From positions 160,001 through 224,000 of the forward strand of contig CAVPLT010000007.1 in assembly GCA_963706325.1 (NCBI GenBank): DNA of 64,000 bases, written 5' to 3'. A program made the position numbers and the translations under genes. The DNA comes from an uncultured Nitrospiraceae bacterium. Its GTDB lineage: Bacteria > Nitrospirota > Nitrospiria > Nitrospirales > Nitrospiraceae. The notes beneath the pieces are model-generated. The model saw only the letters and a list, made by a program, of their open reading frames with translations, was not told the origin of the DNA and made no database searches. Below, in pieces: positions 4,869-62,113 of the stretch (positions are counted from its first letter, which is position 1; each line of letters begins with the position of its first letter).

Positions 4869-4888
4869 ACCTGTAACTTTTGACAGTT
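4869..4888 (+). promoter_or_regulatory. lux-box-like site 1 (ACCTGTAACTTTTGACAGTT) upstream of ppk2 and the carbohydrate cluster
   Basis: 20-bp CTG-N10-CAG dyad; TATAAC 21 bp downstream (4910-4915). Confidence 0.75.
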
Positions 4889-4998
4889 ATGAATCAGACC
4901 GGGTCAGTCTATAACATCACAAGAGCGAAGTACGGTCCGAGGGCTTAAATGTATATTGATGAAAAAGCACAACACCCGCGCGATGCCATATCAGATGG

Positions 4999-5831
4999 GA
5001 AACGGAGAAAATAATGGTGAAAGAGAAGCTGCCGGAAGGCAATGGCAAGGCCAAACTCAAGGGCAAAGAATATGAAAAGGAAATACGCCGGCTTCAGGCC
5101 AAGCTTTGCGACCTTCAGGCCTGGGTGAAGCATAAAGGGCTGCGCGTGATGGTCTTGTTTGAAGGCCGTGACGGCGCGGGGAAGGGCGGCACGATTCGAG
5201 CCATCACGGAACGCGTGAGTCCGCGCGTGTTCCGTGTGGTGGCGCTCCCGGCGCCCACGGATCGCGAGAAGACCCAGATGTACATGCAGCGGTACATGGC
5301 GCACTTCCCGGCGGCCGGCGAGATCGTCATTTTTGACCGCAGCTGGTATAACCGCGCGGGGGTCGAACACGTCATGGGGTTTTGTACGAAAGAGCAGTAC
5401 CGCGGCTTTCTGGAGCACTGTTCGGTTGTCGAGAAGTACATCGTCGACGCCGGAATCATCCTGGTCAAGTATTGGCTGGAGGTAAGCAACCAGGAGCAGG
5501 AACGGCGATTCGAAGCTCGCATCGAAGACCCCTTGCGCCAGTGGAAGCTCAGTCCGATGGATTTGCCGTCCCGCGAGAAATGGTACGACTACTCCCATGC
5601 CCGCGACCGCATGCTGGAGGCGACCGATACGACGCACGCCCCCTGGCATCTGGTGCATTCGGATGACAAGAAACGAGCGCGCCTCAACTGCATCAGCCAT
5701 TTGCTCTCACGGATCCCTTACAAGGACCTTCGGCGGGAGAAACTCAAGATACCCCAGCGATCCAAGAAAGGCGCCTACGACGATCACGCCACCTTGCAAA
5801 GTAGAAATTTTGTACGAGAGGTGTATTGATG
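4999..5831 (+). repeat. 833-bp direct repeat, copy 1 (RBS to stop of ppk2)
   Basis: Matches 22957-23789 (offset 17,958); identical translations in all frames of the ORF track. Confidence 0.93.
5014..5829 (+). CDS. ppk2: Polyphosphate kinase 2
   Basis: FEGRDGAGKGG P-loop, IFDRSWYNRAGVE, WKLSPMD. Confidence 0.95.
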   Translation: MVKEKLPEGNGKAKLKGKEYEKEIRRLQAKLCDLQAWVKHKGLRVMVLFEGRDGAGKGGTIRAITERVSPRVFRVVALPAPTDREKTQMYMQRYMAHFPAAGEIVIFDRSWYNRAGVEHVMGFCTKEQYRGFLEHCSVVEKYIVDAGIILVKYWLEVSNQEQERRFEARIEDPLRQWKLSPMDLPSREKWYDYSHARDRMLEATDTTHAPWHLVHSDDKKRARLNCISHLLSRIPYKDLRREKLKIPQRSKKGAYDDHATLQSRNFVREVY

Positions 5832-6395
5832 ACTGGTTGGGCTTGATTTGCTTAAGGAACAAGAACTCACTGGAACGATCCGATTAGTGGGTAGGGGATG
5901 TTTCCTGACGTTCCGAACGCTCTTCGAAACATGCCAGTTAATGTGACAGGCTCAGCTCAACAGGAGTGGAACAAACCGAGGAGGTGGAGCAGTCCGTCAA
6001 TCTGGTTTGGGTAGAGGGCCCCAGGACCTTTCTGCCCTCCATCAGCCAACGAATCGTCGCTTCGCTGATACACCATTGATGCCTGGCGCTGGACGTCCGC
6101 CGACTATGATGGCGACCGCTTCGACCATCGCGATTCGTTTACTGTCCTTGTTGCATTCATCCTATGGCAAGCCTCGAATCCTCGTGTCCACGCATGCGAG
6201 GTATACGAAGAATACATGTACCATTCGCGCGCATGAAGAAAGAAAAGGACCCTGTCCTCTCAGCCGGACAATTCGATTTCACGGAGATGACGCAGCAGAG
6301 TGGTGTCATTGGGGCTTATAGGGGGACAGGCTGTGCCGTTTCTTCCTGGGTGAAGTAGGTCGGCTACATCGGTATTGCGGGAAAAGGAGCGTGTT

Positions 6396-7424
6396 ATGAC
6401 AGCAGCACAAGAACTGGAACAGACGGCGGGCGCATTGGTCGCCGGGGGGAAAGGCATCCTGGCGGCAGACGAAACTGTCGCCACCGTCACGAAGCGACTG
6501 AACGCGCTCCAGATCGAATCCACCGCCGACAGCCGGCGGACCTACCGCGAAATGTTTTTTACGACACCCGGCGCAGCAGAGTTCATCAGCGGTGCCATCT
6601 TATACGACGAAACTATCCGTCAGAACAGCTCCTCCGGCATTCCGCTTGCGGAGGTGCTGAGAAAGCAAGGCATCATCCCTGGGATCAAGGTGGATACGGG
6701 GGCCAAGGCGCTGGCCGGCTCGCCTGACGAAACCGTTACGGAAGGGCTGGACGGTTTGCGCGACCGCCTGAAGGAATACTATGGCCTTGGCGCGCGCTTT
6801 GCGAAGTGGCGCGCCGTCATTCGGATTACAGAGCAACTCCCGAGTCCCAGGTGCATCAACGTGAATGCGCATGCGCTGGGCCGTTACGCGGCGTTGTGCC
6901 AGGAGGCGGGGCTTGTGCCCATCGTGGAGCCCGAAGTCCTCATGGACGGAGGGCATACGATCGAACGGTGCAACGAGGTAACCGGTTCCGTCCTTCACGC
7001 GCTCTTCAACGCTCTGTGCGAGCAACGGATAGTCCTGGAACAGATGCTGCTCAAGCCCAGCATGGTCATCTCGGGAAAGTCCTGTCCGGAGCAGGCTTCG
7101 GTCAGCGAAGTCGCCACGGCGACACTGCGCTGTCTGCGCCAGTATGTTCCGGCCGCGGTTCCCGGTATCGTGTTCCTGTCCGGCGGTCAAAGCGATCTCC
7201 TTGCAACCAGGCATCTCAACGCCATTAATATGCTTGACAGGCCGCATCCCTGGACAGTCAGTTTTTCCTATGGTCGTGCGCTTCAGGACCCGGCGCTGCA
7301 TGCGTGGCAGGGCAAGGCGGAGCGATTTAAGGCAGGCCAACAGGCGTTCCATCATCGGGCCAAGTGCAACGGCGCCGCCGCTCTTGGACGATATACCGAG
7401 GCGCTGGAGGGGGTCTTGCCGTGA
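6396..7424 (+). CDS. fba: Class I fructose-bisphosphate aldolase
   Basis: GKGILAADE, GARFAKWRAV, VPIVEPEV, LLKPSMV (Schiff-base Lys), FLSGGQ, FSYGRALQ; AGGAG RBS. Confidence 0.95.
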   Translation: MTAAQELEQTAGALVAGGKGILAADETVATVTKRLNALQIESTADSRRTYREMFFTTPGAAEFISGAILYDETIRQNSSSGIPLAEVLRKQGIIPGIKVDTGAKALAGSPDETVTEGLDGLRDRLKEYYGLGARFAKWRAVIRITEQLPSPRCINVNAHALGRYAALCQEAGLVPIVEPEVLMDGGHTIERCNEVTGSVLHALFNALCEQRIVLEQMLLKPSMVISGKSCPEQASVSEVATATLRCLRQYVPAAVPGIVFLSGGQSDLLATRHLNAINMLDRPHPWTVSFSYGRALQDPALHAWQGKAERFKAGQQAFHHRAKCNGAAALGRYTEALEGVLP

Positions 7425-7534
7425 ATATCAGCGCAGAGGAATCGGGCTTGGCGGTCTATGTGGTCGCGGCGGACGAAGAAACATGGATTGCCAGGGAGAC
7501 GGTAGGGCGCGTGCGAAGCATACATTCGTCATAA
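7421..7534 (+). pseudogene. ackA: Acetate kinase remnant (37 codons: start fused to the extreme C-terminus)
   Basis: Translates MNISAEESGLAVYVVAADEETWIARET..., resembling the AckA C-terminal IS...V-x-V...(T/D)EE-x-x-IAR-x-T motif; GTG overlaps the fba stop; directly upstream of xfp. Confidence 0.7.
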
Positions 7535-7573
7535 GCCAATAGAGCCGACTATAAGAGCGGGAAAGGAGAGGTC

Positions 7574-9982
7574 ATGGCAAATCCGATATCGCAGAAGGAG
7601 CTGAAATTGATCGACGCCTACTGGAGGGCGGCCAACTACCTTTCAGTGGGACAGATTTATCTGCATGATAACCCGCTTCTGAAGAAGCCGTTGAGTAAGG
7701 AGCATGTGAAGTCGAGGCTTCTGGGTCACTGGGGCACCACCCCGGGTCTCAATTTCATCTATGCGCATCTGAACCGAGCAATCAAGGCCCGCGACCTCAG
7801 CATGATCTACATCATCGGTCCGGGCCATGGCGGTCCCGGCATCGTCGCCAATACCTATATGGAGGGCACCTACTCGGAGGTCTACCCGAACATTGCGCAA
7901 GACGAAGTGGGCATGCAGCGGCTATTCAAACAGTTCTCGTTCCCCGGAGGCATCCCCAGCCACGTAGCGCCCGAGACCCCCGGCTCAATACACGAAGGCG
8001 GCGAATTAGGGTACGCGGTCTCTCACGCCTACGGGGCTGCATATGATAATCCCGACCTGATCGTCGCCTGCGTCGTCGGCGACGGCGAGGCGGAAACCGG
8101 ACCGTTGGCAACCTCCTGGCACTCCAACAAGTTCCTCAATCCGGCGACCGACGGAGCAGTGCTGCCGATCCTCCACCTGAATGGGTACAAGATCGCCAAT
8201 CCCTGCCTGTTGGCTCGTATCAGCCACGAAGAATTGGATCATCTCTTCCGCGGCTACGGCTACACGCCCCATTTCGTCGAGGGCAGTGATCCGGCCAAGA
8301 TGCACCAGCTCATGGCTGACACCGTCGACACTTGCATGGAGGAAATCCGTAGCATCCAGACGCAGGCGCGGACGAAAGGTGTGAAGGAGCGGCCGCGTTG
8401 GCCAATGATCATCCTCCGTTCTCCCAAGGGGTGGACTTGCCCGAAGGAGATTGACGGTAAACGAACCGAGGACTACTGGCGGAGCCACCAGGTGCCGATG
8501 GGTGAGATGCACGAAAAGCCCGAGCATGTGAAGATCCTTGAAAAATGGATGAAGAGCTACAAGCCGGATGAGCTGTTCGACAAAACCGGCCGGCTCATCC
8601 CCGAGCTCGCTGATCTTCCGCCGAAGGGTGAGCGCCGCATGAGCGCCAATCCGCACGCCAACGGCGGCTTGGTGCTCCGTGACTTGCGTCTGCCGGACTT
8701 CCGTGACTATGCCGTCAAGGTTACGTCACCCGGCGCCATTGAGGCCGAGTCCACCCGCCACATGGGAAAGTTCCTGGCCGACACGATGAAGCTGAACATG
8801 GAGAGTCGTAATTTCCGTCTGTTCAGTCCGGACGAGAACAACTCAAACCGGTGGCAAGATGCGCTGGAGGTCACCAACCGCGCTTGGATGGCGGATCGCT
8901 ATCCATACGATGACCATTTGGCCCCTGACGGACGCGTCATGGAAATGCTCAGTGAACACCAGTGTCAGGGGTGGCTGGAAGGGTATCTTTTGAGCGGACG
9001 GCACGGGTTTTTCTCCTGCTACGAGGCCTTCATCCATATTATCGACTCAATGTTCAATCAGCATGCCAAGTGGCTGAAGGTCTGCAATGATATTCGGTGG
9101 CGGCGGCCGATTGCCTCGCTCAATTATCTGTTGTCCTCGCACGTCTGGCGGCAGGATCACAACGGGTTCAGTCACCAGGACCCCGGCTTCATCGACCACG
9201 TCGTGAACAAGAAAGCGGAGGTTGTGCGCGTATATCTGCCGCCGGACGCGAACACCCTCTTGTCGGTCACCGATCACTGTCTGCGCAGCCGCAATTACAT
9301 CAATGTGATCGTCGCTGGCAAGCAGCCTGCTCCGCAATGGTTGACGATGGACCAGGCCGTCAGGCACTGCACAGCGGGCATCGGAATTTGGGAATGGGCC
9401 AGCAACGACAGGGGAGGGGACCCCGACGTCGTCATGGCCTGCTGCGGCGACGTCCCCACGCTCGAAACGCTGGCTGCGGTGGATCTGTTTCGCCAGCATC
9501 TCCCGGCGCTGAAGATCCGTGTGGTGAACGTCGTCAACCTGATGAAATTGCAGCCGCAGAGTGAGCACCCGCATGGCCTGCCGGATCAGGACTTCGATGC
9601 ACTCTTTACGAAAGACAAGCCCATCGTGTTCGCCTTCCACGGCTATCCATGGTTGATCCATCGGCTCACGTACCGGCGGACGAACCATAAGAATCTGCAC
9701 GTACGCGGCTACAAGGAAGAAGGCACGACGAGCACGCCATTCGACATGGTGGTGATGAATGATCTTGATCGGTTTCATCTCTTTGGCGACGTGATTGATC
9801 GGCTACCGCAACTTGGGTCCCGCGCAGCCTATGCCAAGCAGGCGGTTCGCGACAAGTTGCTCGAGCACAAAGAATACATCTCGAAGTACGGCGAAGATAT
9901 GCCCGAAATCACAGACTGGCAATGGGGTAAGGCGAAAGCGGCAACGAGGCGGAGGACCACGACAGAAGGAGACAACGTCTAA
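7574..9982 (+). CDS. xfp: Xylulose-5-phosphate/fructose-6-phosphate phosphoketolase
   Basis: [36 protein letters not shown]. Confidence 0.96.
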
Positions 9983-10069
9983 GCGGCGACTCAAATACAT
10001 GATGAGACCGGAATAAGGAAGTCGCGTCGGCGAATAAACCGGGTCCTTGAGCCGCATCGCGGAGGTTGT

Positions 10070-12553
10070 ATGGAACAGGAGACCTCGAAAAAAATTCTTC
10101 AACAATACGGAGTCGGGCCTATCCAATTTTCCGGCACGAATGATGCGCTCTATGAGCGGCATCTGACTTTCGACCACGTCGTGGATGTCAAGAAGGCCGA
10201 TGTGCAGGAGCAATTTGAAGCGGCGGCACGTGCGATCCGCGACATCATTTCACAACGCTGGATCCGGACCGAAGACACGTATGCAGAGAAGAACCCGAAG
10301 CGCGTGTATTATCTTTCGATGGAATTTCTTCTCGGGAGATCGTTTGTCAATAATGTGACCAATGCGTTGCTCCGCCCATTGACGCTAGAAGCCGCGAGAA
10401 AGAAGGGCATTGACCCGCTGACAATGCTGGCCATAGAGGCAAGGGAGCCGGATGCCGGGCTGGGGAACGGGGGGCTCGGCAGGCTGGCGGCCTGTTTCAT
10501 AGATTCGATGGCGACGATGCAGATTCCCGGGATGGGTTATGGCCTCCGCTACGAATACGGAATCTTCAAGCAAACGATCAAGGACGGCTGGCAATGCGAA
10601 CAGCCGGATAATTGGTTGCGTCGTCCCGATCCCTGGGAAGTGGCACGGCTCGAGGAATCGGTCGAAGTGAAGCTGAGCTGTTCGTTCGAGCTGCACGACG
10701 GCATATTGCGGTTGGTGCCCGGGCGGCCGTCCAGCATCATCGGCATCCCGTTCGACCGTCCCGTCGTCGGCTACGGCGGCAAGACGATCAATACGCTTCG
10801 GCTGTGGGCTGCGACGGTACCAAATTACTTCGACTTTCAACGATTCAGCAGCGGGGATTTCGTGGCCGCATTGGCCGGAACGCTGGCGGCCGAGTCGCTG
10901 ACGCGTGTGCTTTATCCCGACGACTCCACAGTTCGGGGCCAGGGGTTGCGATTCCTGCAGGAATACTTCCTGGTCGCCTGCTCGCTGGGCGATCTCGTGC
11001 GACGCTTCCGGCGTGGCAATTCCGACTGGAACGTTCTTCCCGAGAAAGTCGCCATCCAGTTGAACGACACGCACCCGACAATGGCAGTTCCAGAGCTGAT
11101 GCGAATTCTGCTGGACGACGCGCATCTCAGTTGGGACCAGGCCTGGGATCTGACGCAACGATCACTCGGGTATACAAACCATACGCTGCTGCCCGAAGCT
11201 TTGGAGAAATGGCCGCTTGAATGGTTCGAGCGCTTCGTGCCTCGGTATGCGGAAATTATCCACGAGATCAATCGCCGGCATCTTGACCAAGCGCGGGCGC
11301 GCTTCGCGGGCGACCAAGAGCGTCTCGCGTCCGTGAGTCTCATCGAAGAGGGCGCGACGCGTAAAGTCCGTATGGCCAACCTCGCTATCGTCGGAACGCA
11401 TAGCACGAACGGCGTGGCCGCCATCCACTCAGAACTGCTGCGCACGATGACGGTCAAGGATCTGGCCGAAATGTTTCCTGAGCGGTTCAACAACAAGACC
11501 AACGGGGTCACGCCGCGAAGGTGGTTGCTGTTGGCGAATCCGGCGCTCTCGGACGTTATCACCGCAGCCATTGGAGACGGATGGATCACTGATCTCGGCC
11601 AGCTGAGCAAGCTCAAGAAACTGGCCGGTGACAAGGCCTTTCGGGGCGCAGTTCGCAAGGCCAAGCGCGAGGCGAAATCGCAGTTCGCGCAGTGGCTCAA
11701 GACGACATCCGGGCAGACGGTCGATCCGGACAGCATCTTCGATTGCCAAGTGAAACGTATCCATGAGTACAAACGCCAACTGCTCAACGCCCTGCGCATC
11801 GTGGTGCTGTACAACAGGCTGAGGGAGAATCCGGACCTCAAGATGGCCCCGCGGACATTTTTCTTTGCCGGCAAGGCGGCGCCGGCATACCACTTGGCCA
11901 AGATCATCATCAAGTTCATCAATAATCTGGCCGGCACTATCGATGGAGATCCGATCGTCCGCGGACGACTGAAGGTCGTGTTTCTACCGGAATACAGCGT
12001 GTCGCTTGCCGAGCGGCTGATTCCGGCCGCCGATGTCTCCAACCAGATTTCGACGGCCGGCTACGAGGCCAGTGGTACGAGCAATATGAAGTTCATGATG
12101 AACGGAGCCCTGACGCTGGGGACATGCGACGGCGCGACCATCGAAATGGCGGAAGAAGTGGGTGAAGAACACTTCTTCATGTTCGGCCTCACCGCGGACC
12201 AAGTGGCCGCCAGCAGGGGCTGGTACAGCCCGGGCTGGCATTATGACAACGAAGCGGAGACTCGCGCGGCGCTGGACCTCCTCTTCTCCGGTCACTTCAG
12301 TCAGTATGAACCTGGCGTCTTCGAACCGCTGCGGCACACGTTGTTGACCGGTGGAGACCACTACATGCACCTGGCGGACCTCACGGCCTATCTCAGGGCC
12401 GACCGGAAGCTGTGCGATCTGTACGGCGACTCGGATGGATGGACGCGTAAAGCGATCTTGAATATCGCCGGCTCAGGGAAGTTCTCCAGTGACCGCACGA
12501 TCGCCGAGTATGCAGCCGACATTTGGAATGTGAAGGCCTGTCCCGTCTCCTGA
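10070..12553 (+). CDS. glgP: Glycogen/starch phosphorylase
   Basis: GLGNGGLGRLAACF, QLNDTHP, KRIHEYKRQ, EASGTSNMK. Confidence 0.96.
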   Translation: MEQETSKKILQQYGVGPIQFSGTNDALYERHLTFDHVVDVKKADVQEQFEAAARAIRDIISQRWIRTEDTYAEKNPKRVYYLSMEFLLGRSFVNNVTNALLRPLTLEAARKKGIDPLTMLAIEAREPDAGLGNGGLGRLAACFIDSMATMQIPGMGYGLRYEYGIFKQTIKDGWQCEQPDNWLRRPDPWEVARLEESVEVKLSCSFELHDGILRLVPGRPSSIIGIPFDRPVVGYGGKTINTLRLWAATVPNYFDFQRFSSGDFVAALAGTLAAESLTRVLYPDDSTVRGQGLRFLQEYFLVACSLGDLVRRFRRGNSDWNVLPEKVAIQLNDTHPTMAVPELMRILLDDAHLSWDQAWDLTQRSLGYTNHTLLPEALEKWPLEWFERFVPRYAEIIHEINRRHLDQARARFAGDQERLASVSLIEEGATRKVRMANLAIVGTHSTNGVAAIHSELLRTMTVKDLAEMFPERFNNKTNGVTPRRWLLLANPALSDVITAAIGDGWITDLGQLSKLKKLAGDKAFRGAVRKAKREAKSQFAQWLKTTSGQTVDPDSIFDCQVKRIHEYKRQLLNALRIVVLYNRLRENPDLKMAPRTFFFAGKAAPAYHLAKIIIKFINNLAGTIDGDPIVRGRLKVVFLPEYSVSLAERLIPAADVSNQISTAGYEASGTSNMKFMMNGALTLGTCDGATIEMAEEVGEEHFFMFGLTADQVAASRGWYSPGWHYDNEAETRAALDLLFSGHFSQYEPGVFEPLRHTLLTGGDHYMHLADLTAYLRADRKLCDLYGDSDGWTRKAILNIAGSGKFSSDRTIAEYAADIWNVKACPVS

Positions 12554-12685
12554 TGCAACGACGTGCTGTCATAGGGGGAGGATTGCGCCATGGAATCCGA
12601 ACAGCTCATGAATATTGGTTGAGGTCACGTTGGATGGGGGACTCTGGGTAGGACCGGAAGTCATGAAAAAACCCGGGAGGTTGTT

Positions 12686-13460
12686 TTGACGAAGGATGGG
12701 GTACAAGGTGATCAAACAAAAGATCGCAGTCCGGCTGGACTCCCTGATTCCGGCGAGGCGATAAGTCTCGACGATCAAACGCAGGTTATCCAGATTCTCG
12801 GGCAATCCGTGCAGGGACTGTGGGAGGTGGTCAATAATCTTACACGGCTTCGGCCGAAGAAACGGGCGGAGTTCCGCGTCACGATTTTCGGATCGGCCCG
12901 CATTCCACGCGAACACTGGGTGTTTGGCGCGGTTCGCGACCTGGCTAAGGAATTGGGTCGGATGGGCTGTGGCATTGTGACCGGTGGCGGGCCGGGTTTG
13001 ATGGAGGCGGCCAATGAAGGGGCAGCGTTAGCCGGACCGGCCGCGCAAAGGTGGAGTGCTGGCATTCGCGTGCATCTGCCCTTCGAGCAGGAAGCCAATC
13101 CGTTCGTTGGTCAAGCCTACGAACACCGTACGTTCTTTTCGAGACTCCATCATTTCGTCCTGGTGTCGGACGCGTTCGTTGTCGTCCCGGAGGAATTGGC
13201 ACGGTGTTGGAGCTCGCTATGATCTGGCAACTCCTTCAAGTGCGCAAATTGGACCAAACGCCTCTGGTTTTGATCGGACCCATGTGGGCAGAATTCATCA
13301 AGTGGGGGCAGCAGTATTTCCTGAGGCCGGAGTTTGAACTGGCCGGACCTGCAGATCGCAAGATTCCTCAATGCGTGGAAACCGCTGCAGAAGCAGTGGC
13401 GATCATTCGTCCTCACTACGAACAATGGCTATGTGATTCGGGTTTGCAGGCGAAGCCGTG

Positions 13461-13461
<1 letters not shown>
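12686..13461 (+). pseudogene. LOG-family nucleotide phosphoribohydrolase with one frameshift at ~13188
   Basis: ORF 12686-13222 carries IFGSAR and TGGGPGLMEAANEGA; the overlapping frame continues PGGIGTVLEL...; stop overlaps the next ATG. Confidence 0.85.
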
Positions 13462-16250
<2,789 letters not shown>

Positions 16251-16358
16251 AGCCGGTCACGGTCCCCCTGGTTGAATGGGGGTCGCAATCAATGCTGCGG
16301 ACGCAGCTGATGGCGTCCGCACGGCGCAGTAGTCGCGCTCAGGTTCGGTAGGCTTCTA

Positions 16359-16943
16359 ATGGCTGTTCCAGCGCAACAGGTGTTTCTCGTACGTCACGGT
16401 GAAACGGAGTGGAGTCTCAACGGACGACACACCGGTACCACCGACATTCCGCTGACCGAACACGGACGGGAGGTGGCCAGATTGTTGCGACCCATCCTCG
16501 CAAAGGAGTCGTTCGCGCTGGCTCTGACGAGTCCTCTCTTGCGAGCCCGGGATACCTGCCAGCTCGCAGGTTTCGGAGAGGTGGCAAAAGTCGAGCCCGA
16601 TCTGATGGAGTGGAACTATGGGAGCTATGAAGGATTGACGCCTGCTCAGATTCATGCGACGGCACCGGGCTGGCTGCTCTTTCGAGATGGCGGCCCGGGG
16701 GGAGAACAGCCAGGGGAAATCGGCGCACGGGTCGATCGTGTGATTGAGAGCGCGCGAGCCGTCGAGGGCGATGTCATATTGTTCGCCCATGGGCACGTGC
16801 TCAGAGTCCTTGCTGCTCGTTGGTTGGGCCTCCCCCCTTCACAGGGCCAACGCTTTTTGCTCGGTACGGCGACCATGAACATCTTGAGCTATTATCGCGG
16901 CGTTCCGGCGATCAAGCGATGGAACGCACCGGTTCAGTTCTGA
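16359..16943 (+). CDS. Histidine phosphatase (phosphoglycerate mutase superfamily)
   Basis: RHGETEWS...GRHTG...DIPLT, EWNYGSYEG, FAHGHVLR. Confidence 0.92.
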   Translation: MAVPAQQVFLVRHGETEWSLNGRHTGTTDIPLTEHGREVARLLRPILAKESFALALTSPLLRARDTCQLAGFGEVAKVEPDLMEWNYGSYEGLTPAQIHATAPGWLLFRDGGPGGEQPGEIGARVDRVIESARAVEGDVILFAHGHVLRVLAARWLGLPPSQGQRFLLGTATMNILSYYRGVPAIKRWNAPVQF

Positions 16944-17008
16944 GCGCGCGACGGCGTCAGTGAGAAGAGCCACATGCGGAACCGTTGGAATGCTAAGGAG
17001 GTGATGCG

Positions 17009-18649
17009 ATGACGAGCGGTGCCGGTCCACTCACGCAAGGCGCTGCCTGGAATGCCCTTCGCGAACATTACGAAGCGATCAGGGCCGTGCATATGCGGGA
17101 TCTGTTTGCGAAAGATCCCGGGCGCGGCGCCCGCTTGGTGTGCGACACGCAGGGGATCTACCTCGACTATTCAAAAAACCGCCTCACGGATGACACGATG
17201 CGGCTGCTGCTCGATCTCGCGGGCGCGGCCGGCTTGCGCTCGGGTATCGACGCGATGTTTCGCGGCGACAAGCTCAATGTGACGGAGAACCGCGCGGTCC
17301 TCCACGTCGCGCTGCGTGCCCCTTCCGGCGCCACCATTAAAGTGGGCGGCGAAAACGTGGTGCCGAAGGTCCACGCGGTGATCGAGAAAATGGCCGGTTT
17401 CGCAAACCGCGTCCGCAGCGGCGAGTGGAAAGGTCATACCGGCAAGCGCATTCGGAATGTCGTGAACATCGGCATCGGAGGCTCGGATCTTGGACCAGTT
17501 ATGGCCTATGAGGCGCTACGGGCGTACAGCGATCGCGCGCTGACGGTTCGTTTCGTCTCCAACGTTGATGCGACCGATGTCGCCGAGTCGACGCGGGACA
17601 TCGATCCGGCGGAGACTCTGTTCATTGTCTGCTCGAAGACCTTCACCACGCAGGAGACCCTTGCCAACGCGCAGACCGCGCGTGCCTGGTGCCTCCAAGC
17701 GCTCAAGAGCGACAAGGCCGTGGCCCGCCACTTCGTGGCCGTGTCCACGAATGCGGACGAAGTCGCGAAATTCGGAATCGATCCCGCCAACATGTTTGAA
17801 TTCTGGGATTGGGTCGGAGGCCGCTACTCGCTGCCCTCGGCCATCGGTCTCTCGCTGATGGTCGCCATCGGACCTGAACGGTTTCGTGAAATGCTGGCCG
17901 GGTACCATGCAATGGACGAGCATTTCAGGACCGCCCCGTTCGACAAGAACCTGCCGGTGCTGCTGGGACTCATCGGGCTTTGGTACGTGAATTTCTTCGG
18001 CGCCGAGTCCCAAGCGATTTTGCCCTATGATCACTACCTCGGCCGGTTGAGCGCCTATCTGCAACAGCTCGACATGGAGAGCAACGGGAAGCGCGTGGAC
18101 CGGGATGGGAGCGTGGTGAATTACCAGACGGGCCCGGTCATCTGGGGGCAGCCCGGCACCAACGGCCAGCATGCGTATTACCAGTTAATCCATCAGGGCA
18201 CGCGGTTGATCCCATGCGACTTCATCGGTTTCTGCCGGTCGCTCAATCCCATGGGACAGCATCACGATCTGCTGGCGTCCAATCTCTTCGCGCAGACAGA
18301 GGCGCTGGCCTTTGGCAAAACCGCCGCGGAAGTGGAGGCTGAAGGAGCGCCTCCGGCTCTCGTGCCGCACCAGACGTTTCCGGGCAACCGCCCGACGAAT
18401 ACCATCCTGATTGAGCAACTGACACCGGAGATGTTCGGGAAGTTGATCGCGCTCTACGAACACAAGGTTTTCGTCCAGGGCACGATCTGGCGTATCAACT
18501 CGTTCGACCAGTGGGGCGTGGAGCTCGGCAAAGTGCTGGCCAAACGGATCACGCCGGAATTGACGAGCGTAACGGACTCCGAGCTCCGGCACGACAGCTC
18601 GACCAACGCGTTGATCCGGCGTTACCGTCGGCTTCGCCTGCCGAGCTGA
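17009..18649 (+). CDS. pgi: Glucose-6-phosphate isomerase
   Basis: [38 protein letters not shown]. Confidence 0.97.
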
Positions 18650-18691
18650 CACCTCGTTCCGCTGGCAACACCTTAATCCGAAAGGCTTGCG

Positions 18692-20755
18692 ATGACTCGT
18701 GAACAGCTCGACCAACTCTGCATCAACACCATCCGGACATTGTCCATGGATGCCGTTCAGCAGGCCAACTCAGGCCATCCCGGGACGCCCATGGCCTTGG
18801 CGCCTGTGGTCTATTGTCTGTGGCAGCGATTTCTGCGTTTCGATCCGCAGGACCCGATCTGGCCCAATCGAGACCGTTTTGTCCTGTCCGTCGGCCACGC
18901 CTCGATGCTCTTGTACTCCCTGCTTCATCTCACCGGGGTGAGGGCCGTGAGCAAAGAATACGAGACCCTCGGTGAACTGTCGGTCCCGTTGGATGCGATC
19001 AAGCGGTTTCGTCAATGGGAGAGCCGCTGCCCTGGTCATCCGGAGTACCGGTGGACCTCCGGGGTCGAAACCACAACCGGACCTCTCGGGCAGGGGATTT
19101 CGAACAGCGTGGGCATGGCCTTGGCCGGCCGCTGGATGGCTGAGCATTTCAATCGGCCCGGCTTCGAAGACATGATCAATTTTAACGTCTACGCCTTGTG
19201 CGGGGACGGTGACATGATGGAGGGGATTTCGCACGAGGCCGCTTCGATGGCCGGACACTTGGGCATCTCGAACCTCTGCTGGATCTATGACAACAATCAC
19301 ATCACGATCGAAGGCAACACCGCGCTGTCTTTTTCGGACGATGTCGCAACACGGTTCGTCGCCTATGGCTGGAATGTCACTCGCGTCGGTGACGCCAACG
19401 ACCTCGTGATGCTCGAGCGGGCATTCCGCACCTTCCAGAGGACGACAGATCGGCCGACGCTGATCATCGTGGATAGCCACATCGCGTATGGGGCGCCCAA
19501 CAAACAAGACACCTCGGCGGCTCACGGAGAACCGCTCGGCGAAGAGGAAATCAGACAGACCAAGAGACATTACGGATGGCCGGAGGACGCCAAATTCCAT
19601 ATTCCAGACGGTGTCTATGAGCACTTTCGGCAAGGGGTCGGCGCTCAAGGGAAGGTGTCCCGCGACGCATGGTTCACGCGCATCAACGAGTACAAAGCCA
19701 AGTATCCGGAGCTGGCCGATCAATTGTACCGGATGCAACACCGGCAGTTGCCCGATGGATGGGACAAAGACCTGCCTGCTTTTCCAGCCGACGCCAAGGG
19801 CATGGCCACGCGGGTCTCGTCCGGGAAGGTGTTGAACGAGCTGGGAAAACGCGTGCCCTGGTTGATGGGCGGGTCGGCGGATCTGGCTCCTTCGGCAAAA
19901 ACGCGGTTGACGTTTGAGGGGGCGGGCGATGTGTCTGCCGAGACTCCCGGCGGCCGCAATCTTCACTTCGGTATTCGCGAGCATGCGATGGCGGCAATCC
20001 TGAACGGGATGGCCCTGGTGAAAGTCAGGGCCTATGGTTCCGGTTTCCTGATTTTCAGTGATTATGCCAGAGGTGGGATCCGGCTCGGCGCAATCATGGA
20101 ATTGCCCGTCATTCATATTTTCACGCACGACTCGATTGCCGTGGGAGAAGACGGGCCGACACATCAGCCGGTCGAACATCTCGCCTCGTTGCGCGCGATG
20201 CCCGGGCTGATTGTCCTAAGGCCGGCCGATGCGAATGAGGTGCTGGAAGCCTGGCGCGTGATCATGAATTTGCATCACAAGCCGGTGGCTCTCCTCCTCA
20301 CCCGCCAGGACGTGCCGACATTGGATCGGAGCAAGTATTCCTCTGCCTCGGGCTTGGCGCAGGGAGCCTACGTCCTGGCCGATAGCCCGGATGGACAACA
20401 GCCCGACGTCATCCTCATCGGAACCGGTAGTGAAGTCTCGCTCTGTGTCGCGGCCTACGAACAGCTCAAGTCCGAACGAATCAAGGCTCGGGTCGTGAGC
20501 ATGCCCTCGTGGGAACTGTTCGAGCAGCAGGAACAATCCTATCGCGACAAGGTGCTGCCGCCGGCGGTGAAGGCTCGCGTAGCGGTTGAACAGGCGTCCA
20601 CGTTCGGATGGGAGCGGTACGTCGATAAGTCGGGTCGGATCATCGGGATGAACTCGTTCGGCGCGTCGGCTCCGCTCAAGGAGCTTCAGAAGAAGTTCGG
20701 GTTTGAGCCGGAGCAGGTCGTGGCGGCGGCGAAAGATGTCCTTGGCAGGGAGTGA
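18692..20755 (+). CDS. tkt: Transketolase
   Basis: NSGHPG, ETTTGPLGQG, GDGDMMEG, FGIREHAM, GEDGPTHQP. Confidence 0.97.
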   Translation: MTREQLDQLCINTIRTLSMDAVQQANSGHPGTPMALAPVVYCLWQRFLRFDPQDPIWPNRDRFVLSVGHASMLLYSLLHLTGVRAVSKEYETLGELSVPLDAIKRFRQWESRCPGHPEYRWTSGVETTTGPLGQGISNSVGMALAGRWMAEHFNRPGFEDMINFNVYALCGDGDMMEGISHEAASMAGHLGISNLCWIYDNNHITIEGNTALSFSDDVATRFVAYGWNVTRVGDANDLVMLERAFRTFQRTTDRPTLIIVDSHIAYGAPNKQDTSAAHGEPLGEEEIRQTKRHYGWPEDAKFHIPDGVYEHFRQGVGAQGKVSRDAWFTRINEYKAKYPELADQLYRMQHRQLPDGWDKDLPAFPADAKGMATRVSSGKVLNELGKRVPWLMGGSADLAPSAKTRLTFEGAGDVSAETPGGRNLHFGIREHAMAAILNGMALVKVRAYGSGFLIFSDYARGGIRLGAIMELPVIHIFTHDSIAVGEDGPTHQPVEHLASLRAMPGLIVLRPADANEVLEAWRVIMNLHHKPVALLLTRQDVPTLDRSKYSSASGLAQGAYVLADSPDGQQPDVILIGTGSEVSLCVAAYEQLKSERIKARVVSMPSWELFEQQEQSYRDKVLPPAVKARVAVEQASTFGWERYVDKSGRIIGMNSFGASAPLKELQKKFGFEPEQVVAAAKDVLGRE

Positions 20756-20822
20756 TCAGCGGGGCCATCGAGGCACTCGAAGACGCAGGGATGATCGCGG
20801 ACCGGGCCGCGGAAGGGCGACC

Positions 20823-22895
20823 ATGAAGACCATTGGTAACAGCTCACCCCTGGGCGCAACGATCGGTCGTGGCGGCGTTAACTTCAGTCTCTTTTCGCGT
20901 GACGCGACAGGCGTGGAGTTGCTCTTGTTTGATGGGCCGGAGGACGCCAAACCGGGGCGCGTGGTCAGCCTTGACCCGGTTACCAACCACACCTACCATT
21001 ACTGGCATGTGTTCGTGCCTGACGCAGGGCCCGGACAGATTTACGGCTATCGCGCTCAAGGCATGTTTGATCCTGCAAGAGGAATGCGATTTGATCCAGC
21101 CAAAGTCCTGCTCGATCCATACGGCCGCGGCGTCGTTGTGCCGAAGGCCTACAGTCGGGACTCGGCCGCTCGGGAAGGTAACAATGCCGCGATGGCCATG
21201 AAGAGTGTGGTGATCGACCCATTGGCTTACGATTGGGAAGGTGATTCGCCGCTCAAACGGCCCGCTTCGCGGACGATAGTCTACGAGATGCACGTGCGGG
21301 GATTCACCCGCCATTCCAGTTCCGGCGTCGCTGAGAACAGACGGGGCACTTATGCCGGTTTGATCGAGAAGATACCGTATCTTCAGCAACTCGGCATCAC
21401 CGCCGTCGAACTTCTTCCGGTCTTCCAGTTCGATGCTCAGGACTGCCCGCCGGGAAAAATCAATTACTGGGGCTATGCCCCGGTTTCGTTCTTCGCCCCT
21501 CACCAGGCCTACAGCTCGCGGCAGGATCTGCATGGCCCCGTTGATGAATTTCGAGATATGGTCAAGGCGCTGCACCGAGCCGGCATCGAGATCATTCTCG
21601 ATGTCGTGTTCAACCACACGGCAGAAGGCGACCACTCCGGGCCGACTCTAAGCTTCCGTGGTCTGGACAACAGGACCTACTATCTTCTGGATCAGGATCA
21701 GGCGCGGTACGCCGACTACACCGGCACGGGGAACACGCTGAACTCGAATCAGCCGATCGTCCGCCGCATGATCGTCGACAGCCTCCGCTATTGGGTCGAT
21801 GAGATGCATGTGGATGGATTCCGGTTCGATCTCGCGTCCATCCTCGCGCGAGGCGAGTCGGGTGCAGTGATGGCGGATGCGCCGGTCCTGTGGGATATCG
21901 AAACGGACCCGTCTATGGCCGGTGTGAAGTTTATTGCCGAAGCCTGGGATGCGGCGGGGCTCTACCAGGTGGGTAGTTTTATCGGGGATAGTTGGAAGGA
22001 ATGGAACGGACGGTTCCGCGACGATGCCCGCAGTTTCTTCCGCGGTGAAGACGGTTCGCTGGCGCGCTTTGCCGACCGCTTGGCCGGAAGCCCGGAGATC
22101 TACGGACACAAGCAGCGTGAGCCCGAGCAAAGCGTGAACTTCGTGACCTGTCACGACGGGTTCACGCTCAACGACCTTGTCTCCTATGATCAGAAGCACA
22201 ACGAGGGCAACGGCGAACGCAACCGGGATGGAGCCAACGACAATCGGAGCTGGAACTGCGGCGTCGAAGGTCCGACAGACGACCCCGTGGTGGAACGGCT
22301 GCGGAACCGGCAGGTGAAGAATTTCCTGACCGTCACGCTGCTTTCTCTGGGGCTGCCCATGATTCTCATGGGAGACGAGGTGCGGCGCACCCAGCGCGGC
22401 AACAACAATGCCTACTGCCATGACGATGACACGAACTGGTTCGACTGGACGCTGGTCGCCAAACATGCAGACGTGCATCGGTTCGTTACACTGCTTAACG
22501 CACGCCGAGTCTTGCGGGACGAGGAGCATGAGCGCCAGCGCTTGAGCCTGACTCAGCTGATCCGGCAGGCTAACAAATCCTGGCATGGCGTCAAGCTCGG
22601 CCAGCCGGACTGGAGTCCCCGGTCGCATAGCATTGCGCTCAGCGCGGAGCTGCGGAAGGAAGGGCTCCTCTTTTGCATGATCTTGAACGGCTACTGGGAA
22701 CGGCTTGAGTTCGAGCTCCCCCCTTCGAGCAACGGCCGCGTGAATCAGTGGCGCCGTTGGATCGACACGGCGCTCGACTCACCTCTGGACATCGTTCCAT
22801 GGCGAACCGCTCCGTCGATTTCCGGCTCGACGTATCGGGCGGAGGCGCGCTCTGTGGTGGTGCTGTTCGCCGATTTGGCAGGGGGAGGAAGGTAA
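20823..22895 (+). CDS. glgX: Glycogen debranching enzyme (isoamylase)
   Basis: YEMHVRGFT, NYWGY, DVVFNHTAEG, DGFRFDLA, IAEAWD, NFVTCHDGFTL. Confidence 0.95.
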   Translation: MKTIGNSSPLGATIGRGGVNFSLFSRDATGVELLLFDGPEDAKPGRVVSLDPVTNHTYHYWHVFVPDAGPGQIYGYRAQGMFDPARGMRFDPAKVLLDPYGRGVVVPKAYSRDSAAREGNNAAMAMKSVVIDPLAYDWEGDSPLKRPASRTIVYEMHVRGFTRHSSSGVAENRRGTYAGLIEKIPYLQQLGITAVELLPVFQFDAQDCPPGKINYWGYAPVSFFAPHQAYSSRQDLHGPVDEFRDMVKALHRAGIEIILDVVFNHTAEGDHSGPTLSFRGLDNRTYYLLDQDQARYADYTGTGNTLNSNQPIVRRMIVDSLRYWVDEMHVDGFRFDLASILARGESGAVMADAPVLWDIETDPSMAGVKFIAEAWDAAGLYQVGSFIGDSWKEWNGRFRDDARSFFRGEDGSLARFADRLAGSPEIYGHKQREPEQSVNFVTCHDGFTLNDLVSYDQKHNEGNGERNRDGANDNRSWNCGVEGPTDDPVVERLRNRQVKNFLTVTLLSLGLPMILMGDEVRRTQRGNNNAYCHDDDTNWFDWTLVAKHADVHRFVTLLNARRVLRDEEHERQRLSLTQLIRQANKSWHGVKLGQPDWSPRSHSIALSAELRKEGLLFCMILNGYWERLEFELPPSSNGRVNQWRRWIDTALDSPLDIVPWRTAPSISGSTYRAEARSVVVLFADLAGGGR

Positions 22896-22956
22896 GCGAT
22901 GGGGCTGACCTCTTGATACGGCGGAGAGTAATCAATTCGCTGATCTGATACGAGTA

Positions 22957-23789
22957 GAAACGGAGAAAATAATGGTGAAAGAGAAGCTGCCGGAAGGCAA
23001 TGGCAAGGCCAAACTCAAGGGCAAAGAATATGAAAAGGAAATACGCCGGCTTCAGGCCAAGCTTTGCGACCTTCAGGCCTGGGTGAAGCATAAAGGGCTG
23101 CGCGTGATGGTCTTGTTTGAAGGCCGTGACGGCGCGGGGAAGGGCGGCACGATTCGAGCCATCACGGAACGCGTGAGTCCGCGCGTGTTCCGTGTGGTGG
23201 CGCTCCCGGCGCCCACGGATCGCGAGAAGACCCAGATGTACATGCAGCGGTACATGGCGCACTTCCCGGCGGCCGGCGAGATCGTCATTTTTGACCGCAG
23301 CTGGTATAACCGCGCGGGGGTCGAACACGTCATGGGGTTTTGTACGAAAGAGCAGTACCGCGGCTTTCTGGAGCACTGTTCGGTTGTCGAGAAGTACATC
23401 GTCGACGCCGGAATCATCCTGGTCAAGTATTGGCTGGAGGTAAGCAACCAGGAGCAGGAACGGCGATTCGAAGCTCGCATCGAAGACCCCTTGCGCCAGT
23501 GGAAGCTCAGTCCGATGGATTTGCCGTCCCGCGAGAAATGGTACGACTACTCCCATGCCCGCGACCGCATGCTGGAGGCGACCGATACGACGCACGCCCC
23601 CTGGCATCTGGTGCATTCGGATGACAAGAAACGAGCGCGCCTCAACTGCATCAGCCATTTGCTCTCACGGATCCCTTACAAGGACCTTCGGCGGGAGAAA
23701 CTCAAGATACCCCAGCGATCCAAGAAAGGCGCCTACGACGATCACGCCACCTTGCAAAGTAGAAATTTTGTACGAGAGGTGTATTGATG
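22957..23789 (+). repeat. 833-bp direct repeat, copy 2
   Basis: Matches 4999-5831; similarity starts at GAAACGGAGAAAATAATG and ends 2 bp after the stop. Confidence 0.93.
22972..23787 (+). CDS. ppk2: Polyphosphate kinase 2 (identical protein to 5014-5829)
   Basis: Same 271-aa translation. Confidence 0.95.
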   Translation: MVKEKLPEGNGKAKLKGKEYEKEIRRLQAKLCDLQAWVKHKGLRVMVLFEGRDGAGKGGTIRAITERVSPRVFRVVALPAPTDREKTQMYMQRYMAHFPAAGEIVIFDRSWYNRAGVEHVMGFCTKEQYRGFLEHCSVVEKYIVDAGIILVKYWLEVSNQEQERRFEARIEDPLRQWKLSPMDLPSREKWYDYSHARDRMLEATDTTHAPWHLVHSDDKKRARLNCISHLLSRIPYKDLRREKLKIPQRSKKGAYDDHATLQSRNFVREVY

Positions 23790-29727: not shown

Positions 29728-29950
29728 GATTCTCTCCTTTTTATGAACTGACCGGTGTGCTGACTTCGCCCGCGTCAGCTCGGCGCCGGCCAGCAGAGAT
29801 AGCGTGTGTGCAGCTTCATGGTTGTCCTCCCACGGTCCACATAAATTCTCGAAACCTCCCCAGAGCCAGCTCTTATCGAAGAGCTTCTTGATTGTAGAAG
29901 CGGAAGAGGAAATGCTTGGCACATATATAAGGGGAAGGGGAGGAGGTGGA

Positions 29951-47172: not shown

Positions 47173-47173
47173 G

Positions 47174-51777: not shown

Positions 51778-51797
51778 AACTGTCAAAAGATACAGGT
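51778..51797 (-). promoter_or_regulatory. lux-box-like site 5 (rc ACCTGTATCTTTTGACAGTT) upstream of the RND operon
   Basis: Consensus match; TAATAA 21 bp downstream on the minus strand. Confidence 0.75.
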
Positions 51798-53278: not shown

Positions 53279-53298
53279 AACTGTCAAAAGTAACAGTG
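53279..53298 (-). promoter_or_regulatory. lux-box-like site 6 (rc CACTGTTACTTTTGACAGTT)
   Basis: Upstream of the SYLF gene; GATACT 21 bp downstream on the minus strand. Confidence 0.72.
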
Positions 53299-53658: not shown

Positions 53659-53678
53659 ACCTGTCAGTTTTGAAAGTG
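53659..53678 (+). promoter_or_regulatory. Degenerate lux-box-like site 7 (ACCTGTCAGTTTTGAAAGTG)
   Basis: One core mismatch; no -10 at the expected spacing; faces the HAD remnant at 53933. Confidence 0.5.
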
Positions 53679-60390: not shown

Positions 60391-61221
60391 ATGGACTCCA
60401 GAGCTTTCTCACCGGGCTCGACCGCCACGCGACGTCGTCAGCTGAGCTCCCGGTCGAAGGAGGGTCGAACGGGAGTTGCGCACTCCTCTCAAGACACCGC
60501 CTCTCTCCGTGAGCTGAAAACCCTTGCGTCTCGATGTGGCACTCCGAAACAGTTTCGTGATCTCCTCTCTTCGCTGAAGAACCTCCTCCCTTACCGAAAT
60601 CTCATCTGCGGATGGGGATACCCTTCGAGTGCAACCATCGGGTTTATCTTCAATCACAGTTATCCCACCGAGCTTGTGCGCTGGTTTTTCGCAAATGGCA
60701 TGCTGTGGAGGAGTCCGGTCTTCAAGGAATGGCTCCGGACGAATAAGACTCAAGTCTGGCTCGATGTCGCAAAGCGCCTGAGAAAAGACTTCGACCCTGA
60801 ACTCCTCCTGCGGCTCCAACAGCAGAAGCTGGAGTATGCCTTCTCTGGCGGCATACTCAATGAGGACCTTTGGGTCCATTTCTCCATCAACATGGAGTCG
60901 GAAGAGAGCTGCCGCGCCCACTTGAGGCGATTTGAGACCATCGTACCGGTACTGGCAGAAGCGCTCATGCGGGCTTGCCCTCGGCCGCTGCTCACGGATC
61001 GCGAAAGAGCCATTTTAGAGCGCCGCGCGATGGGGGAGCTCATCAAGCAGATTGCTTCCGCACAGGGTATCAGCGAGCGTACCGTGCGGATGCACCTGCA
61101 GCGCATCAAAAAGAAGCTCTACACCGATGACCTCGTGAATGCCGTTGTGATCGCGGTTAGAAGCGGAATGCTTGCACCATTATGGAAGGAGTGGCGCTGG
61201 CGAAGCCGTCACCGACGTTAG
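60391..61221 (+). CDS. LuxR-family regulator with autoinducer-binding-like N-domain (LuxR solo)
   Basis: SYP...SPV...VW N-domain; LTDRERAIL...G...KQIA...GISERTVRMHLQRIKKKL HTH; GGAGG RBS. Confidence 0.88.
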   Translation: MDSRAFSPGSTATRRRQLSSRSKEGRTGVAHSSQDTASLRELKTLASRCGTPKQFRDLLSSLKNLLPYRNLICGWGYPSSATIGFIFNHSYPTELVRWFFANGMLWRSPVFKEWLRTNKTQVWLDVAKRLRKDFDPELLLRLQQQKLEYAFSGGILNEDLWVHFSINMESEESCRAHLRRFETIVPVLAEALMRACPRPLLTDRERAILERRAMGELIKQIASAQGISERTVRMHLQRIKKKLYTDDLVNAVVIAVRSGMLAPLWKEWRWRSRHRR

Positions 61222-61342
61222 GAGCCGGGCGAAACCTTTGCCATCGAGGGCAGATAAGGGCTGCCGCCGATGCCCAAAAGGAGACGTTCATGCATCGGAT
61301 GCGTACCTCATTGTCGAGCCCCTCCATGATGCGAAGGGGAAG

Positions 61343-61723
61343 CTACGGTGTCTCCTCTCTCGCCTGGAAATGTCGAAGGCATTTCTCCCGTAAGAGATCG
61401 GTATCCGCAGGCATCGAAATATAGTCCCGTGCGCCTTTTCGAATAGTTTCTTCCAAGCGCTCGTGGGTTGAAAAGGAAGACAATACAATGACAGGGGTCT
61501 CGACACGCAGCTTCTGAAGGCTATCCAGCACGGCCATTCCGTTATGGTTCTGCATGTCAAAATTCAAAATGACGCCGTCGAATTTGGATGTCTTCGCCCA
61601 TTGATTTCCTAGGATTGTGACAGCATGTACCCAGACAACGTTGAACCCTATCGTATTCAGCCGAGTGCGCAGCACTCCCTGCTCCTCGAAATCATCACCG
61701 ATCATCAGAATGAGACCGCGCAT
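61343..61723 (-). CDS. Atypical (pseudo) receiver domain protein
   Basis: REC layout (LMIGDD...FDGVILNFDM...G...PVIVLS...GARDYISMP) with Asp->Asn and Lys->Met changes. Confidence 0.78.
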   Translation of the reverse strand: MRGLILMIGDDFEEQGVLRTRLNTIGFNVVWVHAVTILGNQWAKTSKFDGVILNFDMQNHNGMAVLDSLQKLRVETPVIVLSSFSTHERLEETIRKGARDYISMPADTDLLREKCLRHFQAREETP

Positions 61724-61799
61724 TGCCGCTCCTCCTAGACGAAGTTCTAGGGCATCCGTTCGGCCCTGGATGACACCCTATAGGAGAAGAAACGCAAAG

Positions 61800-61828
61800 G
61801 ACATCTGTCAAAACAGGAGGTATCCTCT
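61800..61828 (+). repeat. 29-bp direct repeat, copy 2
   Basis: GACATCTGTCAAAACAGGAGGTATCCTCT. Confidence 0.8.
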
Positions 61829-62093
61829 CCGGTGCGTCTCGCCTGTCTCCTCCCAGATCTCTTCTGCGGATAGGGTATCCCGGAATGATCAAGGCTCGGG
61901 GTTTCACTGCAGGTTGCCCAGAAGGTGCAAGGGGCTTAGCGGTAAATTATATCGAGGTCGTCGCTGAATCTTCCGGCGGTATTCTTTGTCGGATCTCTGC
62001 ACGGATTCTCTGTCTTCGCCTCTAAATGTGGCGATCAATTGTGACGCAATCTTGCAGGTGGTTGCAGTGTCTTGACTGCGTCGATCTGTCCCA

Positions 62094-62113
62094 ACCTGTC
62101 AATTCTGACAGTA
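62094..62113 (+). promoter_or_regulatory. lux-box-like site 8 (ACCTGTCAATTCTGACAGTA)
   Basis: Upstream of the barrel gene; TATTCT 21 bp downstream (62135-62140). Confidence 0.78.

Follow-up and report, generated by a model that had tools for sequence, protein, structure and literature searches.

Several described systems share features with the operators that are the subject of this report; the accounts of them were available in part, and the comparisons made here extend to those parts. The closest published operator that we found is the afe-box of Acidithiobacillus ferrooxidans, which is read by AfeR, a LuxR protein that binds N-acyl homoserine lactone (AHL) and has one known target (PMC3759942). 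The lux box of Vibrio fischeri and the box of Nitrospira NspR1 (PMC8553950) have a CTG-N10-CAG frame, a length of 20 bp and a class II promoter position. In kind, the lxa locus of Burkholderia cenocepacia comes closest: it is a large accessory cluster in which one motif is found at many intergenic points (PMC3721108). Here we analyze eight lux-box-like operators in a 64,000-nucleotide stretch from an uncultured Nitrospiraceae bacterium (assembly GCA_963706325.1, contig CAVPLT010000007.1, positions 160,001 to 224,000), hereafter the window (G000:C7:160001-224000). These boxes are real and form part of a larger promoter set on a 114-kb island. Judging from gene neighbourhood and co-occurrence, their likely reader is a response regulator of the NarL/FixJ family whose gene lies some 5 kb upstream of the window.

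The resemblances are partial in each case. The afe-box has the half-sites CTGTCA and TGACAG, a 4-bp spacer, an overlap with the -35 region and an activator with a LuxR-type helix-turn-helix (HTH) domain, as here (PMC3759942). In contrast, the present motif has an asymmetric centre (NTTY) and about 20 sites, and the co-occurring protein is NarL-type and predicted to be controlled by phosphorylation. The V. fischeri box (as quoted in the original prediction) and the NspR1 box score only 3-5 bits on the present motif, and no LuxI or AHL-binding domain was found here. The lxa locus also carries genes for universal stress proteins (USPs), acetate kinase, phosphate acetyltransferase, cytochromes b and c, and two-component proteins. 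Its motif, however, is the Anr/Fnr-like TGA-N6-TCA and its induction at low oxygen has been shown (PMC3721108), whereas for the island described here such induction would be a prediction. NarL/FixJ regulators such as SsrB, MctR, GacA and NarL (NCBIfam) share with the present system a receiver joined to a GerE HTH, a HisKA_3 kinase and a palindromic operator. A literature search, mostly of open-access text and not covering regulon databases, yielded no description of this regulator-operator pair, including in the available parts of PMC8115632, PMC11636273, PMC4444344, PMC545781 and PMC12342949.

All eight 20-mers of the original prediction match letter for letter at their places (Table 1). Their core is CTGT(C/T/A)A-N(T)T(T/C)-TGACAG-T, the downstream half being the more strongly conserved, and their leave-one-out scores on a position weight matrix (PWM) made from these eight sites are 23-32 bits. 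In the 4.24-Mb genome of the window (G000, 96% complete), a genome scan of the kind that had been proposed as a check finds 19 sites of at least 20 bits, compared with 0, 1 and 1 in three block shuffles. Eleven of these sites fall outside the window. Among named organisms, the closest protein relatives of this genome bear the label Nitrospiraceae or Nitrospira. By place, 15 of the 19 are in the 114-kb island (C7:138-238 kb), three are on C4:902-911 kb and one is on C5; a PWM refined on 18 sites of this genome gives 21 sites. The exact pattern CTGTHABTTYTGACAGT is present in 38 of 201 family genomes, and its reversed control is absent from all of them. With 1159 occurrences in the genome, the frame CTG-N10-CAG is not diagnostic by itself.

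The distance from box to promoter is nearly constant. The seven -10-like hexamers noted previously are all present, with a gap of 21 in six cases and 20 in one. Strict TAnnnT is seen at only two of the eight window sites; TA at gap 20-22 occurs at six of the eight, compared with a genome TA frequency of 2.6%. Both the fixed spacing and the orientation replicate out of sample. After near-duplicate flanks had been removed, TAnnnT stood at gap 20-22 on the downstream side of 43 of the 105 sites from other Nitrospiraceae and on the other side of 7 (mean of 2.3 in other gap windows); for the 91 sites from other phyla the counts were 42 and 8 (mean of 1.6). T and G are enriched at gap 18-19 in the Nitrospiraceae sites, which fits an extended -10 as conventionally defined. 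Taking the -10 at -12 to -7, the box would span about -53 to -34, with its centre near -43.5. This is the position of a class II activator, in agreement with the geometry originally put forward for this 20-bp CTG-N10-CAG palindrome. The TTGACA within the right half lies 24 bp from the -10 and so is not a working -35. Three RNA runs were available as contigs with about 5% of the words, a form that shows neither transcript starts nor levels.

The proposed regulator has intact receiver and GerE domains, with the recognition helix RT[VI]AFHKY. It is encoded behind a kinase with three PAS domains, HisKA_3 and HATPase domains, and no predicted membrane helix. The genome encodes 25 proteins with GerE-type HTHs, two of them in the island (this regulator and a LuxR-solo-like protein at 60391), and the regulator is the nearest of the 25 to a site (201 bp). 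A box stands directly after its stop codon, ahead of a receiver-only gene, and in 28 of 30 Nitrospiraceae regulator loci a site lies no more than 1.5 kb away, in most cases just past the stop codon. The receiver-only gene of the window's genome (G000:C7:155471-155927) is frameshift-split, through decay or consensus errors; loss of its product could change feedback. The helix RT[VI]AFH resembles RTVKFH of CviR, which may explain the lux-box frame of the operator.

Operator and regulator also co-distribute. A profile of the regulator's HTH, built from 12 rows that all come from motif-positive genomes, is bimodal in the 201 family genomes, with scores of either at least 111 bits or at most 92 bits. 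By this division, 33 genomes carry both the regulator and the exact pattern, 5 only the motif, 2 only the regulator and 161 neither (phi 0.88), and the pattern is found in 21 of the 23 regulator-positive genomes outside the training rows. Both regulator-only genomes have one-mismatch sites on the regulator's contig, one of them 40 bp after the regulator. In the window's genus, the same 3 of 31 genomes carry both motif and regulator. Related E-F-H-K regulators of the window's genome have no site within 100 kb. The regulator itself passes no cut-off among the best 25 NCBIfam families listed; it reaches at most 135 bits with an equivalog, where 242 would be required, and is none of the named equivalogs shown. 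Its best match among solved structures is EL222 at 52 bits, with no close one.

The same pairing extends to other phyla. Loci were fetched by the regulator's HTH, and the best 79 of more than 578 subfamily loci across all GTDB species, two of which lie on one contig, were scanned with a PWM from the window's genome alone, counting sites of at least 14 bits. Among these 79, sites occur in 52 of the 70 non-Nitrospirota loci (157 sites, compared with about 3 in shuffles), and within 1 kb of the HTH in 42 of the 70. Acidobacteriota contribute 42 of 55 loci and 145 sites (2.6 in shuffles) and Gammaproteobacteria 5 of 9 loci. The single loci of Gemmatimonadales, Gemmatales, Eisenbacteria, Limnocylindrales and Rhodothermales each have sites, and the one alphaproteobacterial locus has none. 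The Rhodothermales contig is short and shares its site with a Lysobacterales locus; it may therefore be misbinned. Five whole genomes from the other-phylum groups hold only 1-17 one-mismatch matches each. A receiver-GerE regulator next to a HisKA_3/HATPase kinase is the arrangement of a NarL/FixJ-family two-component regulon; such a kinase lies within 3 kb in 40 of the 79 loci. The kinases related to that of the window's genome (n = 57) have a common catalytic core, but their N-terminal input regions vary widely in length and contain between 0 and 7 predicted membrane helices. The regulator also occurs in cultured organisms, namely Nitrospira tepida (P0020), Terriglobus sp. ADX1 and Terracidiphilus gabretensis.

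Several points weigh against assigning the boxes to this regulator, or against parts of the model built on it. A box beside the regulator gene would by its position show membership in the regulon, not that the regulator binds. The 111-bit cut was set after the gap had been seen, and genomes that are related do not count as independent. All five genomes with the motif alone are metagenome-assembled, three of them 74-76% complete and two 96-97% complete with 9% contamination; 18 of the 70 other-phylum loci are without a site. The input regions of the 57 related kinases contain no conserved Cys or His, and the signal is not fixed. The afe-box, which serves an AHL LuxR, has the same half-sites and scores 9.9-22.6 bits on the PWM (PMC3759942). 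As for the proposed output, genes for pyruvate formate-lyase (PFL) and serine dehydratase (sdh) are absent from all 11 other Nitrospiraceae regions, and energy genes turn up in 0-1 of the 70 other-phylum 20-kb loci.

Some of these points would suit a different transcription factor as reader, with the response regulator merely a conserved target. The commonest first gene after a site is the regulator or a receiver-only gene (34 genomes or loci), the five genomes just mentioned have the motif without the regulator, and one Acidobacteriota genome has 17 one-mismatch matches dispersed along its chromosome. We consider this unlikely. No further DNA-binding protein was found among the island open reading frames (ORFs) scanned, no protein cluster beyond those of receivers and kinases occurs in more than 18 genomes or loci, and gain and loss of the motif within a genus follow the regulator. 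The original prediction had a LuxR-type activator in view, with the LuxR at 60391 among the candidates; this LuxR-solo-like protein could read the boxes in response to a non-AHL small molecule. It is encoded inside the island, 1.1 kb from a site, has close orthologues (75-79%) in the islands of G007 and G044, and matches CviR over residues 36-257 in a profile comparison; the box, moreover, has a lux-box frame. Its distribution makes this improbable. With only 12 candidates scored per genome, homologues appear in 20 of 201 genomes, 10 with the motif and 10 without, there is no match in 28 motif-positive genomes, and 153 genomes have neither (phi 0.26, against 0.88 for the NarL-family regulator). 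In one genome (G015) six matches are accompanied by no site, even when one mismatch is allowed, a paralogue at C5:338856 lies 280 kb from any site, and the motif was found in other phyla at loci fetched by the response regulator. The invariant residues of LuxR autoinducer-binding domains are W57, Y61, D70, P71 and W85 (PMC4338825). In an alignment to CviR, the 60391 protein has L95, F99, S108, P109 and W123, so that the three AHL-binding residues equivalent to W57, Y61 and D70 are replaced by L95, F99 and S108. The protein is probably an island passenger rather than the regulator. Degenerate LuxR solos form a Nitrospiraceae family, with up to six members matched in a single genome, and the 60391 gene is flanked by receiver-only genes.

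A canonical AHL quorum-sensing LuxR that runs a density or biofilm regulon through the boxes is more improbable still. Both half-sites are shared with the afe-box (AGCTGTCAA-NN-TTGACAGCT), which overlaps a -35 (PMC3759942), and a working LuxI/LuxR pair has been described in Nitrospira (PMC8553950). However, the 96%-complete genome has no match to PF03472 or PF00765, although the PF00765 control was silent and the negative for LuxI is accordingly weak. PF03472 is present in 108 of 201 genomes, with no association with the motif (19 of 38 motif-positive versus 89 of 163 motif-negative genomes), and two genera with PF03472 in 26 of 30 and 23 of 30 genomes have the motif in 0 of 30 each. Island sites score at least 23 bits, compared with 3 for the validated lux box of Nitrospira and 5 for that of V. 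fischeri. What stands of the original proposal is a single activator with a LuxR-type (GerE) HTH, an oriented box near -43 and a co-ordinated regulon; the 60391 protein or an AHL LuxR as that activator is not supported, and a density- or biofilm-linked programme finds no support here. The LexA SOS box is CTGT-N8-ACAG, a pattern that most sites fit, and most also contain TTGACA in the right half. Reading them as SOS boxes or as plain sigma-70 -35 elements is nevertheless the least credible of these alternatives. PF01726 has no match in the genome while 10 of 14 controls gave a signal, repair genes are not among the targets, and conservation extends to the left half-site. The distance between TTGACA and the -10 would be 24 bp, and TAnnnT shows no peak at gap 14, the place for a 17-bp spacer. 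The lack of a LexA DNA-binding domain match in a 96%-complete genome is an observation in its own right, and neither a LexA repressor nor a set of DNA-repair targets was found for an SOS regulon. FNR and CRP boxes are not enriched in the island (FNR-type, 1 versus 0.8 expected), and the motif differs from FNR/Anr/FixK or lxa-type boxes (TTGAT-N4-ATCAA or TGA-N6-TCA).

The model in which a NarL/FixJ regulator with a PAS kinase reads the boxes and activates a stress-survival island is, taken as a whole, one that we hold to be probable. A soluble PAS kinase is predicted to phosphorylate the neighbouring response regulator, a dimer of which would bind CTGTCA-N4-TGACAG centred near -43. Contact with sigma region 4 in class II fashion could then activate sigma-70-type promoters that have no -35 of their own and often an extended -10, and the box right after the regulator's stop codon, ahead of the receiver-only gene, might provide feedback. 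The activated set would be the 114-kb island of likely stress- and energy-survival genes. With lower confidence, its output may be ATP made at the substrate level from glycogen through phosphoketolase, acetyl-phosphate and acetate kinase, together with PPK2 and PFL, and may also include NirK, USPs, MscS and envelope proteins.

The targets themselves bear on this output. Sites in the window's genome precede genes for Rieske/NirK-cytochrome c/cytochrome b, ppk2-fba-xfp-glgP through glgX, and a same-strand run of DcaP-sdh-MFS-pta-ackA-pflB-pflA. They also precede genes for GH63, GH13, a resistance-nodulation-division (RND) pump, sulfatase, SYLF and barrel proteins, and the receiver-only gene; USP and MscS genes are in the island too. 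The lipid-binding SYLF/Ysc84 family is among the most conserved targets. NirK, xfp, ackA, ppk2, glgP and USP genes recur in 3-6 of 11 other Nitrospiraceae regions, and in the 20-kb loci of other phyla only MscS, GH63, GH13, sulfatase and ppk2 are seen again. A gene set of the glycogen, phosphoketolase, acetate kinase, PPK2 and PFL type gives ATP without respiration, and PFL is active only without oxygen. For comparison, the dormancy regulon under DosR is rich in USPs, and the acid regulon under EvgA includes an RND pump. The targets in the window's genome point to a programme for low energy or general stress. Our first choice of trigger in this organism is oxygen or energy limitation, at rather less than even chances, with acid and osmotic or general stress sharing the rest; the idea of an anoxia-linked programme in the original prediction is plausible.

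It is possible, if not the expected outcome, that the same regulator serves acid or osmotic and desiccation resistance instead of low-oxygen survival. Genes 3' of sites elsewhere encode glutaminase, an AspT-type antiporter and asparaginase (G042), an Orn/Lys/Arg decarboxylase (L133), and GH65, LEA_2, BON, aquaporin, MscS and GH63 proteins; the island has serine dehydratase and a Ca/H-type exchanger; and it is MscS, GH63 and GH13, not fermentation genes, that are shared between phyla. Oxygen limitation is indicated, on the other hand, by PFL, NirK-cytochrome c, cytochrome b, hydrogenase (L144), xfp and ackA. USPs rise under low oxygen in Nitrospira marina and Acidobacterium capsulatum, with no link to the motif shown in the available parts of these reports (PMC8115632, PMC11636273). 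The supplement of the latter, in its available part, includes a kinase induced 84-fold by low oxygen and a modestly induced xfp, neither of which could be linked to the motif (PMC11636273). The PAS domains of the kinase match FixL weakly, with no conserved ligand residues, and a search for a haem or Fe-S ligand in the kinase found none. In our reading, the regulator and its operator form an output module for stress and persistence that is conserved while its inputs vary. In relatives, the box is also found 5' of a CAP12/Pycsar-type TIR-domain gene (L067:9804-10727) and an ankyrin-repeat gene (L046:5834-6613).

More speculatively, the RT[VI]AFHKY subfamily and its one operator of fixed geometry may be a portable master switch for a previously undescribed programme of general stress or dormancy in Nitrospirota, Acidobacteriota and several other environmental phyla, joined to different sensor kinases and survival genes in each lineage and building self-regulating islands of more than 100 kb; on present evidence this is rather doubtful. 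The novelty would lie in a two-component regulon of broad phylogenetic reach; class II activation by a NarL-type regulator is in itself ordinary. Nitrospirota and Acidobacteriota are abundant and mostly uncultured, and their gene regulation is little mapped. The regulator-operator pair is directly testable, since start sites are predicted, one genome offers about 20 targets and the regulator has cultured carriers. It would also join many families that lack annotation (SYLF, DUF4136, DUF4403, DUF3943, arylsulfatases) in a single programme, and it carries a warning that lux-box scans can take two-component operators for quorum-sensing targets.

The island is accessory. Synteny with congeners breaks off near C7:137.9 kb, immediately ahead of the first site, and is regained at about 252-256 kb. 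The two flanks adjoin each other in four of four congeners checked on both sides, which places the window wholly inside the 114-kb island. Islands with largely the same genes in shuffled order are present in other genera (G007, G064, G145, G042 and G077), with 24 sites in 140 kb of G007 and 19 in 100 kb of G064. The island is not marked by its GC content (0.545-0.60 per 10 kb, compared with 0.57 for the contig), and no integrase or tRNA was found at its edges among the ORFs scanned.

Table 1 Operators and other features of the window and of the adjoining regulator locus (window positions unless a contig is named; minus-strand boxes are named in the original prediction by their low coordinate, given first)
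Feature	Position	Strand	Context
Operator 1 (ACCTGTAACTTTTGACAGTT)	4869..4888	+	5' of ppk2-fba-xfp-glgP run; -10-like TATAAC 4910-4915
Operator 2	29951..29970	-	5' of arylsulfatase; TATATA 29924-29929
Operator 3	36494..36513	-	5' of outer-membrane protein (OMP) beta-barrel (35245-36321) and SYLF gene; TATCAT 36468-36473
Operator 4	36699..36718	+	Divergent from operator 3; 5' of GH13 (37049-38539); TATGTA 36740-36745
Operator 5	51778..51797	-	5' of RND pump, membrane fusion protein-permease-OMP (45688-51748); TAATAA 51751-51756
Operator 6	53279..53298	-	5' of SYLF/Ysc84 gene (52481-53224); GATACT 53252-53257
Operator 7	53659..53678	+	Orphan: without -10 at fixed gap, without recognisable downstream gene
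Operator 8	62094..62113	+	5' of OMP beta-barrel (62255-62971); TATTCT 62135-62140
Same-strand gene run	5014..23787	+	Pfam/NCBIfam assignments; putative operon
Arylsulfatase	27321..29922	-	Frameshift-split relative to ~800-aa orthologues
LuxR-solo-like protein	60391..61221	+	CviR-like N-terminal region, GerE HTH
Proposed NarL-family response regulator	G000:C7:154743-155396		~5 kb upstream of window
Neighbouring PAS kinase	G000:C7:152843-154735		Regulator gene lies behind it

The boxes had been described as intergenic, which is clearly so for seven; operator 7 is inside two short overlapping ORFs, and the one scanned has no Pfam family. That the T-rich side faces the downstream gene or remnant is upheld as regards orientation, which replicates in independent sites. 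Operator 7 has no -10 at gap 20-22, so the remnant proposed downstream of it is unconfirmed; the region has no blastx match in related islands, and the operator is probably decayed. A glycine-zipper remnant 3' of this site was also considered, and pairwise alignment gave it no support. An Rfam scan of the window had no match and thus gave no sign of a known RNA element.

The same-strand run behind operator 1 encodes, in order, PPK2, class I aldolase, phosphoketolase, glycogen phosphorylase, SLOG, GH63/MGH1-like protein, histidine phosphatase, phosphoglucose isomerase, transketolase, an isoamylase-type GH13 and a second PPK2 copy. An 833-bp ppk2 stretch occurs twice at 100% identity (4999-5831 and 22957-23789), and 23559-24260 and 30688-31390 are a second duplicated pair at 86% identity; these are due either to recent duplication or to an assembly artefact. 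The split arylsulfatase is either a pseudogene or an assembly error, through decay or consensus errors. An isolated ATP synthase gamma-subunit gene (3658-4554, minus strand) is divergent from operator 1 and is also found in 4 of 11 related regions. Four SYLF/Ysc84 paralogues lie in the window between 34337 and 56716, and more are in the island.

Just outside the island's left edge is an intergenic repeat of about 240 bp (L001:11866-12110; G000:C7:136866-137110) with dozens of copies in congener genomes. A separate 21.6-kb integrative element with an integrase (G000:C4:898507-920113) lies between a tRNA-Leu and a 64-bp copy of its 3' end, an att duplication. It carries four more boxes and broken sulfatase genes; a regulator of the RT[VI]AFHKY subfamily was not found in it.

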